A DNA stretch of 64,000 nucleotides, from the sequence record OM386654.1. One strand, given 5' to 3'. The notes under the pieces are model-generated. The model worked only from the letters and a program-made list of their open reading frames with translations. It searched no databases and had not been told where the DNA came from. A program made the position numbers and the translations under genes. The DNA comes from Escherichia phage vB_EcoM_ESCO9. Shown here one piece after another: positions 62,933-63,029 of the stretch; the stretch's first letter is position 1; every line of letters starts with the position of its first letter.

Positions 62933-63029
62933 TGGCAGCAAGGTGAGGAATCGAACCCCCTGATCTATGGTTTGGAGCCATATTGAGTACCATACTCTTT
63001 TAAATCTACCCGGCTATGAGTTCCTTGAA
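62933..63029 (-). tRNA. Aberrant tRNA-like element (T-arm, CCA end and anticodon-type hairpin with CCA/Trp triplet, but no canonical D-arm/acceptor pairing)
   Basis: T-loop TTCGATT with encoded CCA; hairpin TATGG-CTCCAAA-CCATA; 5' acceptor partner only 5/7 and displaced by about 20 nt. Confidence 0.3.

Follow-up and report, generated by a model that had tools for sequence, protein, structure and literature searches.

This locus raises the question of what a stretch of tRNA-like sequence, missed by routine annotation pipelines, represents within a phage tRNA array. In a 64,000-nt stretch of the genome of Escherichia phage vB_EcoM_ESCO9 (OM386654.1; the whole stretch is referred to as the window), the region from 62.7 to 63.65 kb matches the genomes of Escherichia phage phi92 and further Justusliebigvirus (Stephanstirmvirinae) members at 98-99% identity, and carries a same-strand array of tRNA genes that were identified by ARAGORN and Rfam alike (i.e. 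tRNA-Gln, Pro, Phe, Leu, Met and Ile). Between tRNA-Met and tRNA-Ile lies a gap of 146 nt (62928-63073) in which default ARAGORN made no call and no Rfam match reached its gathering threshold. A first-pass annotation had noted an aberrant tRNA-like element in this gap, and its description was confirmed in part. A T arm (GGGG/CCTC, loop TTCGATT; 62945-62959) with an adjoining G and encoded CCA (62933-62936) is present on the minus strand, as is a 5-bp/7-nt hairpin (TATGG-CTCCAAA-CCATA) with the triplet CCA at 62973-62975, and a canonical D arm is absent. Comparative sequence analysis indicates that the element, on the minus strand, is probably a genuine and functional, structurally non-canonical phage tRNA-Trp(CCA), belonging to a conserved family that is restricted to phages.

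The boundaries of the gene were established by comparison with related phages. Its sequence, read 5' to 3', is AGCCGGGT A GAT TTAAA AGAGTA TGG TACTCA A TATGG CTCCAAA CCATA G ATC AG GGGG TTCGATT CCTC ACCTTGCT G CCA. The only acceptor partner had been thought to be TTCAAGG (63023-63029), a match at five of seven positions. This partner is outdone by AGCCGGGT (63008-63015), which pairs with ACCTTGCT at seven of eight positions in the window copy, the single mismatch being C4.U69. TTCAAGG is also unconserved, as BLAST-detected homology begins at ~63017. An HNH homing endonuclease gene (L007 784-1197) lies directly 5' of the element in Salmonella phage UAB_1, and homology to the window starts just 2 nt upstream of the tRNA because this gene was inserted there; HNH genes are also found in the tRNA arrays of the relatives VEcB and ALITA. 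The element is thus 83 nt long, ~8 nt above the canonical 75-nt tRNA-Trp, and not 97 nt with some 20 extra nucleotides as first described.

The fold was derived from two alignments, i.e. A3, a gap-free MAFFT alignment of 16 distinct sequences fitted to no structure, and A7, an alignment of 28 sequences that was fitted to the model and leans towards the structure. Under the proposed fold 96.2% of the cells in A3 were paired, as compared to 41-48% when the 3' partners were slid by 1-3 columns, and compensatory (both-side) changes were found in 21 of 26 pairs; none of 500 shuffles matched the observed values. In A7 the corresponding figures were 94.6% and 23/26. Compensatory substitutions preserve each of the five helices among the 28 sequences, which include members from other phage subfamilies and from metagenomes. 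RNAalifold independently predicted an 8-bp acceptor stem, a 6-bp D hairpin with a 3-nt loop, a 5-bp anticodon stem and a 4-bp T stem, and the minimum-free-energy (MFE) fold of the single 83-mer matched the model apart from one helix, termed helix X. Position 8 pairs with position 65 in 16/16 sequences (as UA, AU, CG or UG). A 7/5 split of the branch would need a 49-65 pair, which forms in just 3/16, and this settles the split between acceptor and T stems as 8/4. In place of the usual 2-nt joint and D arm of 3-4 bp with a 7-11-nt loop, the element has a 9-nt connector and then a 6-bp hairpin with a 3-nt loop. In this D hairpin 93% of cells are paired and a YGG loop is conserved, the stem of the window copy consisting of 5 bp and an A.A mismatch. 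We have strong confidence in the predicted fold as a whole, which would comprise an 8-bp acceptor stem stacked on a 4-bp T stem (together the usual 12 bp), A9, helix X, a U(U)AAA linker, the D hairpin and an anticodon arm and T loop of standard form. The linker is cut to UAA or AA in an 80-82-nt subtype of the family, and its conservation is partly imposed by the search patterns although it is also present in the homologues found by BLAST.

These comparisons bear directly on the possibility that the element is a decaying tRNA-Trp pseudogene, drifting after an insertion in the D region. Such decay would fit with the absence of a call from default ARAGORN and the Rfam tRNA model, with the two mismatched pairs in the window copy and with a pseudogene flag on the neighbouring tRNA-Phe in the phi92 record. 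Drift would, however, destroy pairing and not keep it, whereas the compensatory double substitutions in 23 of 26 pairs include pairs formed by the supposedly inserted nucleotides, and an identical architecture is found across Stephanstirmvirinae, Ounavirinae, Vequintavirinae and diverse metagenomic phages. With five helices maintained in unrelated phage lineages and the tryptophanyl-tRNA synthetase (TrpRS) identity elements retained, the earlier suggestion of a degenerate pseudo-tRNA was abandoned and decay is considered extremely improbable. The related suggestion of a tRNA with an unusual insertion was correct in that extra nucleotides lie between the acceptor stem and the D-like hairpin, but these are part of the conserved pairing and not a spliced insertion. 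A pyrimidine-pyrimidine mismatch (C.U or U.U) at 4-69 (window 63012/62940) was observed in 13 of the 28 members, in several lineages, which suggests that this recurrent mismatch is tolerated or selected and is not random damage.

Helix X pairs positions 10-12 with the variable region, such that the D hairpin and anticodon arm lie inside it. No other pair of columns in A3 has mutual information as high as that of the middle helix X pair (1.98 bits), which is formed in 16/16 sequences by four different pair types (CG in five, GC in four, UA in four and AU in three). Overall, 97.9% of helix X cells were paired, as compared to 8-50% after sliding of the partner, and covariation was detected in all three pairs in A7. 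The helix does not extend further in A3, the 13-51 and 9-55 pairs failing to form, and element positions 33 and 51 resemble the canonical 26-44 non-Watson-Crick pair (i.e. G.U, A.G or A.C). From these covariation patterns helix X is very likely to form, at a level of confidence slightly below that for the fold in general.

A further explanation was that default settings had simply missed a canonical 7/5 tRNA, one with other boundaries or a small intron. Relaxed searches provided some grounds for this: ARAGORN with -ps90 called a 78-nt tRNA-Trp (62933-63010), ARAGORN in mitochondrial mode called an 83-nt tRNA-Trp with a 7/5 fold (62933-63015), and the best match in the Rfam tRNA clan was a weak one to tRNA-Sec (62934-63010, 22.4 bits, E = 0.19, gathering score 47), with RF00005 (gathering score 29 bits) scoring lower. 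The folds drawn by ARAGORN failed the comparative test. In the -ps90 fold the acceptor pairs were formed in 57% of cells family-wide and the D stem in 33%, while the D stem of the mitochondrial-mode fold was paired in 40% of cells and its fifth T-stem pair in 3/16 sequences. The 8/4 model with the D hairpin was paired in 93-95% of cells. Intron mode made no call at the locus, and ARAGORN also misses the homologue in phage PVP-SE1. A canonical tRNA with different boundaries, the finding named in the first-pass annotation as contradicting its proposal, is accordingly very improbable, the only tool calls being those from relaxed and mitochondrial settings. A covariance model built from A3 scored family members at 68-97 bits and canonical tRNAs at 40 bits or less at the loci tested; two other non-member matches from the last IMG/VR scan scored 44 and 51 bits with this model. 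The coordinates of the element, its parts and its immediate neighbours are collected in Table 1.

Table 1. Positions in the window of the tRNA-Trp(CCA) element, its structural parts and flanking features
Feature	Position	Strand	Evidence and remarks
tRNA-Ile(GAT)	62852..62927	-	5 nt downstream of element; ARAGORN and Rfam
Whole non-canonical tRNA-Trp(CCA) gene (probable), 83 nt	62933..63015	-	Covariance model R1, exact coordinates, 95 bits
Discriminator G73 and encoded 3' CCA	62933..62936	-	G73 invariant
Acceptor stem, 3' strand ACCTTGCT	62937..62944	-	Comparative pairing and RNAalifold
T arm, 4-bp stem GGGG/CCTC, loop TTCGATT	62945..62959	-	Invariant G.U pair in stem
Helix X (predicted), 3' strand ATC, within 5-nt variable region GATCA	62962..62964	-	Covariation
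Anticodon arm TATGG/CTCCAAA/CCATA; CCA anticodon 62973-62975	62966..62982	-	Five of five pairs covary
D-like hairpin, 6-bp stem, TGG loop 62990-62992	62984..62998	-	Covariation in all six pairs; RNAalifold
TTAAA single-stranded linker	62999..63003	-	Near-invariant in alignments A3 and A7
Helix X (predicted), 5' strand GAT, positions 10-12	63004..63006	-	Partner 62962-62964; covariation
A9, single connector nucleotide	63007	-	Invariant in MAFFT alignment A3
Acceptor stem, 5' strand AGCCGGGT, positions 1-8	63008..63015	-	8/8 pairs compensatory; 92-94% of cells paired
5' spacer, outside element	63016..63029	-	Unconserved beyond near-identical genomes; replaced in UAB_1, KP13-26 and Tr1
tRNA-Met(CAT)	63074..63152	-	58 nt upstream of element; ARAGORN and Rfam

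The distribution of the family was examined by BLAST and pattern scans, yielding 28 distinct homologues from three cultured phage subfamilies (i.e. Stephanstirmvirinae, Ounavirinae and Vequintavirinae) and metagenomic phage contigs. The element is >97% identical in ~55 phi92-like records. BLAST detected unannotated copies in the Stephanstirmvirinae phages KP13-26 of Klebsiella and Tr1 of Citrobacter, and in Ounavirinae in two Hafnia phages and 'Listeria' phage LPML1; every one of these copies occupies a gap in a tRNA array. Divergent members were retrieved by pattern scans of IMG/VR and metagenome contigs, several of which bear phage genes. BLAST with one metagenomic member led to Vequintavirinae (Mydovirus, Seunavirus and Avunavirus), which carry the 80-82-nt subtype, whilst two metagenomic members compared with cultured phages gave no match in one case and a short 3'-end match in the other. 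Mean column identity among the homologues is 75%, indicating that they are not recent copies of a single sequence. At the loci examined there was one copy per locus, always within a tRNA array. No canonical tRNA-Trp was called by ARAGORN in the element-bearing loci and none is annotated in phi92 or the Hafnia phage; the element is most likely the phage's only tRNA-Trp.

Searches of cellular genomes returned no members of the family. Two pattern scans of one genome per species, covering 185,579 bacterial and archaeal species, found zero members, these scans being pattern-dependent such that divergent members could escape, and BLAST of 5,426 complete E. coli genomes gave no match. The sole cmsearch match from the cellular scans was a canonical-looking Shewanella tRNA-Trp (36 bits). 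A wildcard-anticodon scan of IMG/VR for the same architecture with other anticodons recovered only CCA members.

Within the 80-82-nt subtype, a C.A mismatch at 31-39 was observed in six of seven loci (L035, L036, L037, L040, L044, L050 and L052), giving a 4-bp anticodon stem and effectively a 9-nt loop in tRNA-Trp(CCA). Only L035 (Proteus phage Mydo) departs from this, with a standard U.G pair at 31-39; a fixed CCUCCAAAA context goes with the C.A mismatch. The host labels of some records carrying the element look doubtful. Four 'Campylobacter phage' records (i.e. A150, A145, C3 and A110a; MG065639/45/56/89) are ~98.5% identical to phi92-like coliphages over the region, and 'Listeria phage LPML1' (OK283618) belongs to Ounavirinae (Felix O1-like) and is 91% identical to the Hafnia phages over an 89-nt element.

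Having a conserved fold, the element was examined for tryptophan identity and for the features of a tRNA gene. The major determinants of tryptophan identity are the anticodon, the first acceptor pair and the discriminator base, which is G73 in E. coli and B. subtilis (PMC9976931). G73 is invariant in A3 and A7 and was never part of a search pattern. The 1-72 pair, likewise never included in the patterns, is A-U in the window copy and in 24 of 28 members, and otherwise G.U or G-C. The members recovered by BLAST and by the wildcard-anticodon scan have a CCA anticodon, as do all the others. The anticodon loop contains U33 and A37, and the T loop, discriminator and CCA have the standard tRNA form. 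Over the half running from the anticodon arm to the 3' end, the element and the canonical tRNA-Trp of T4-like Klebsiella phages share ~81% identity. Of 20 members, 16 encode the CCA and 15 have U at position -1. E. coli RNase P favours U at -1.

Alternatively, the element could be a tRNA-shaped RNA acting outside translation, as a decoy or sponge for a tRNA-targeting nuclease or toxin, as a TrpRS-binding mimic or as a processing signal of the operon. Its core is remodelled where tRNA tertiary structure is usually fixed, such that it could be a poor substrate for the ribosome, and standard tRNA models score it below threshold. Moreover, tRNAs are frequent anti-phage targets and phage tRNAs are known counter-measures (PMC10264068, PMC12445682, PMC13096335). 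Selection has nevertheless maintained the 12-bp branch, G73, A1-U72, the encoded CCA, the U33/A37 loop with its CCA anticodon, the D-loop GG and the T loop, and a decoy or processing signal would not require all of these translation features at once. Nor is the element accompanied by a canonical tRNA-Trp in the loci examined. A role outside translation, raised in the first-pass annotation as a processing or decoy element, is called for by none of the results and is therefore thought unlikely, and a translational function of the element is likely on the comparative evidence.

As a translational tRNA-Trp, the element would be released from a polycistronic transcript through RNase P cleavage and 3' processing, a proposal that fits the U at -1 and the encoded CCA. 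Host TrpRS would charge it with tryptophan through the CCA anticodon, G73 and A1-U72. Acceptance by EF-Tu is proposed on the grounds that the acceptor/T branch still amounts to 12 bp (8 + 4), and 8/4 tRNAs are known to translate in E. coli (Mukai et al., PMC5389517). As in tRNASec and allo-tRNAs, the T loop may be docked by the GG of the D hairpin, whilst helix X would link the variable region to the 5' connector and stand in for the tertiary core formed by the D stem and variable loop. By decoding UGG the element would give the phage its own supply of tRNA-Trp.

Several observations weigh against a functional tRNA-Trp with this fold. Many homologues were retrieved with patterns requiring CTCCAAA and GGTTCGA, making the invariance of those motifs partly circular, and both A4 and A7 are model-fitted alignments. 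Nearest-neighbour energies disfavour helix X, which costs +2.3 kcal/mol in the window sequence, and support for this helix is consequently purely comparative. The 106-nt region folds no better than shuffled sequences (z = +0.61), and the window copy carries two mismatches, C4.U69 and the A.A at the base of the D hairpin. Rules for elongator tRNAs are also broken, as U8 is replaced by a base-paired nucleotide, the canonical D stem and loop are absent and the connector is 9 nt long. We infer that TrpRS, EF-Tu and the ribosome may tolerate these departures solely by analogy with 8/4 allo-tRNAs.

Why the core has been altered was also considered, and confidence in any specific adaptive rationale is low. 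The leading ideas for its selection are resistance to tRNA-targeting nucleases and altered decoding. tRNAs are often the targets of anti-phage nucleases, from which phage tRNAs escape via changes in sequence or structure (PMC10264068, PMC12445682, PMC13096335), and the Hirsh G24A and A9C substitutions, located in the hinge (9-12, 23-26, 44 and 45), allow tRNA-Trp(CCA) to read UGA (PMC13092985). The rewired hinge might itself be the adaptive point, permitting decoding of UGA as well as UGG (i.e. phage-controlled opal read-through) or letting the tRNA escape structural recognition by a nuclease, of host or phage origin, that degrades ordinary tRNA-Trp, but this is a doubtful proposition. No signs of UGA read-through were seen in the window, a weak test; the 67 open reading frames of at least 100 aa end in TAA (55), TAG (7) or TGA (5). 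One long in-frame continuation past a TGA (22655-22657) proved to be the next gene with its own ribosome-binding site and ATG. If the hinge were adaptive, this family would be a natural tRNA architecture in which a fifth helix works on bacterial ribosomes. The altered hinge controls the decoding fidelity of tRNA-Trp, such that UGA reading or nuclease evasion is open to direct experiment.

The annotation of this gene is deficient across the related records. In the phi92 RefSeq entry and ~58 related Justusliebigvirus records the gap is blank or overlaid by a spurious 'hypothetical protein'. A 70-codon open frame (window 62804-63013, minus strand) runs across both the element and tRNA-Ile, and the 'hypothetical protein' placed over the element in several GenBank relatives is almost certainly a spurious gene call. 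A published analysis of Justusliebigvirus BME3 with tRNAscan-SE 2.0 and ARAGORN reported 16 tRNAs, Trp not among them (PMC12210895); the BME3 copy of the 146-nt gap is 98.6% identical. PVP-SE1 is the sole record found to label a family member as tRNA-Trp, and this record is silent on its unusual structure. A tRNA gene has been missed by routine pipelines in dozens of coliphages (including therapy candidates) and in Salmonella and Klebsiella phages. Phage tRNA repertoires are incomplete as a result, as are the arguments on codon usage and anti-defence that draw on them. The element may also serve as a compact natural scaffold for the design of orthogonal tRNAs.

Other irregular features were observed in these arrays. 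The tRNA-Phe(GAA) of the window (63330-63404, minus strand; ARAGORN and Rfam) has an atypical T loop, AUCGUUA, in place of a UUCGAAU-like loop, and the same locus carries a pseudogene flag in the phi92 RefSeq entry and is a pseudo tRNA-Glu in the UAB_1 record; this gene may be another non-standard tRNA of the array. Between tRNA-Phe and tRNA-Leu lies an unannotated 77-nt spacer (63253-63329, minus strand) with a possible closing helix, ACACCAU/GUGGUGU (MFE -18.5 kcal/mol, z = -1.74), and without a T-loop motif; Citrobacter phage Tr1 has a similar-sized gap with partial sequence conservation. The phi92 operon may contain further irregular tRNA-like genes, i.e. gt002, an annotated 87-nt 'hypothetical tRNA' lying beyond the window end (51618-51704; L030 3619-3705), and the unannotated gap between tRNA-Leu(TAA) and a pseudo tRNA-Ser, which gave a weak 22-bit match to the family model (51874-51955; L030 3875-3956). 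In PVP-SE1, ARAGORN gave the label tRNA-??? and a four-base anticodon (ggca) to gt009 (L036 2056-2141), an 86-nt gene that the record lists as tRNA-Lys. A 73-kb metagenomic phage contig encodes, ~900 nt downstream of its tRNA-Trp copy and just past the tRNA array, a 493-aa protein (L017 4933-6414) matching PHROG 850, 'RNA-binding protein' (E = 1.8e-126).

In the literature searched on non-canonical tRNAs, tRNA identity, phage-tRNA defence and Justusliebigvirus/rV5 genomes, a coverage that is incomplete, neither this structure nor any helix joining positions 10-12 to the variable region was found. An 8/4 tRNA-Trp is mentioned neither in Mukai et al. (2017) nor in a 2020 review of non-canonical tRNAs, the former (PMC5389517) nowhere containing 'Trp' or 'tryptophan'. 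Among known tRNAs, canonical tRNA-Trp(CCA), e.g. that of Klebsiella phage Roth19, shares with the element a CUCCAAA loop, G73, A1-U72 and a tRNA-array setting. It differs in its length of 75 nt, in its 7/5 branch and U8, and in having a D stem of 4 bp and a D loop of 8 nt, whereas the element family has 80-83 nt, an 8/4 branch, the predicted helix X and the D hairpin. In E. coli tRNA-Trp(CCA), the Hirsh (G24A) and A9C variants are changed in the hinge, the region rewired in the element (PMC13092985), but these are single substitutions in a canonical fold with demonstrated UGA reading, whereas in the predicted fold of the element the entire hinge is re-architected. The tRNA-Trp gt013 of PVP-SE1 (NC_016071.1, 64638-64718) is a member of the same family (R1, 73 bits) with the 8/4 branch, D hairpin and CCA in common; it represents the 81-nt subtype and has a UAA linker, a helix X reduced to two pairs and a C31.A39 mismatch.

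In kind, the nearest counterparts of the element are tRNASec and the (8/4) tRNAs, allo-tRNAs included. The element shares with tRNASec (RF01852) an acceptor stem of 8 bp and a D stem of 6 bp with a tiny loop. It is set apart from tRNASec by the 13-bp branch (8/5 in bacteria), UCA anticodon, long variable arm and Ser/SelB identity of the latter, as compared to the 8/4 branch, CCA anticodon and short variable region of the element, which falls far under the gathering score of this model. A 12-bp branch split 8/4, as in the element, is found in (8/4) tRNAs and allo-tRNAs (Mukai et al. 2017, NAR; PMC5389517), with 8/4 tRNAs reported from phage tRNA clusters amongst other sources. Their D arm likewise combines a long stem and a very small loop, the 3-nt loop of the element being one nucleotide short of a tetraloop. 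The known 8/4 species are tRNA-Ser, allo-tRNA and tRNA-His, and allo-tRNAs possess a long variable arm and Ser identity, whereas the element has a 5-nt variable region, Trp identity, a 9-nt connector and the predicted helix X. The element is an 8/4 tRNA but not an allo-tRNA; with it tRNA-Trp joins the short list of natural 8/4 tRNAs, and the L-shape can apparently arise from a different secondary-structure topology.

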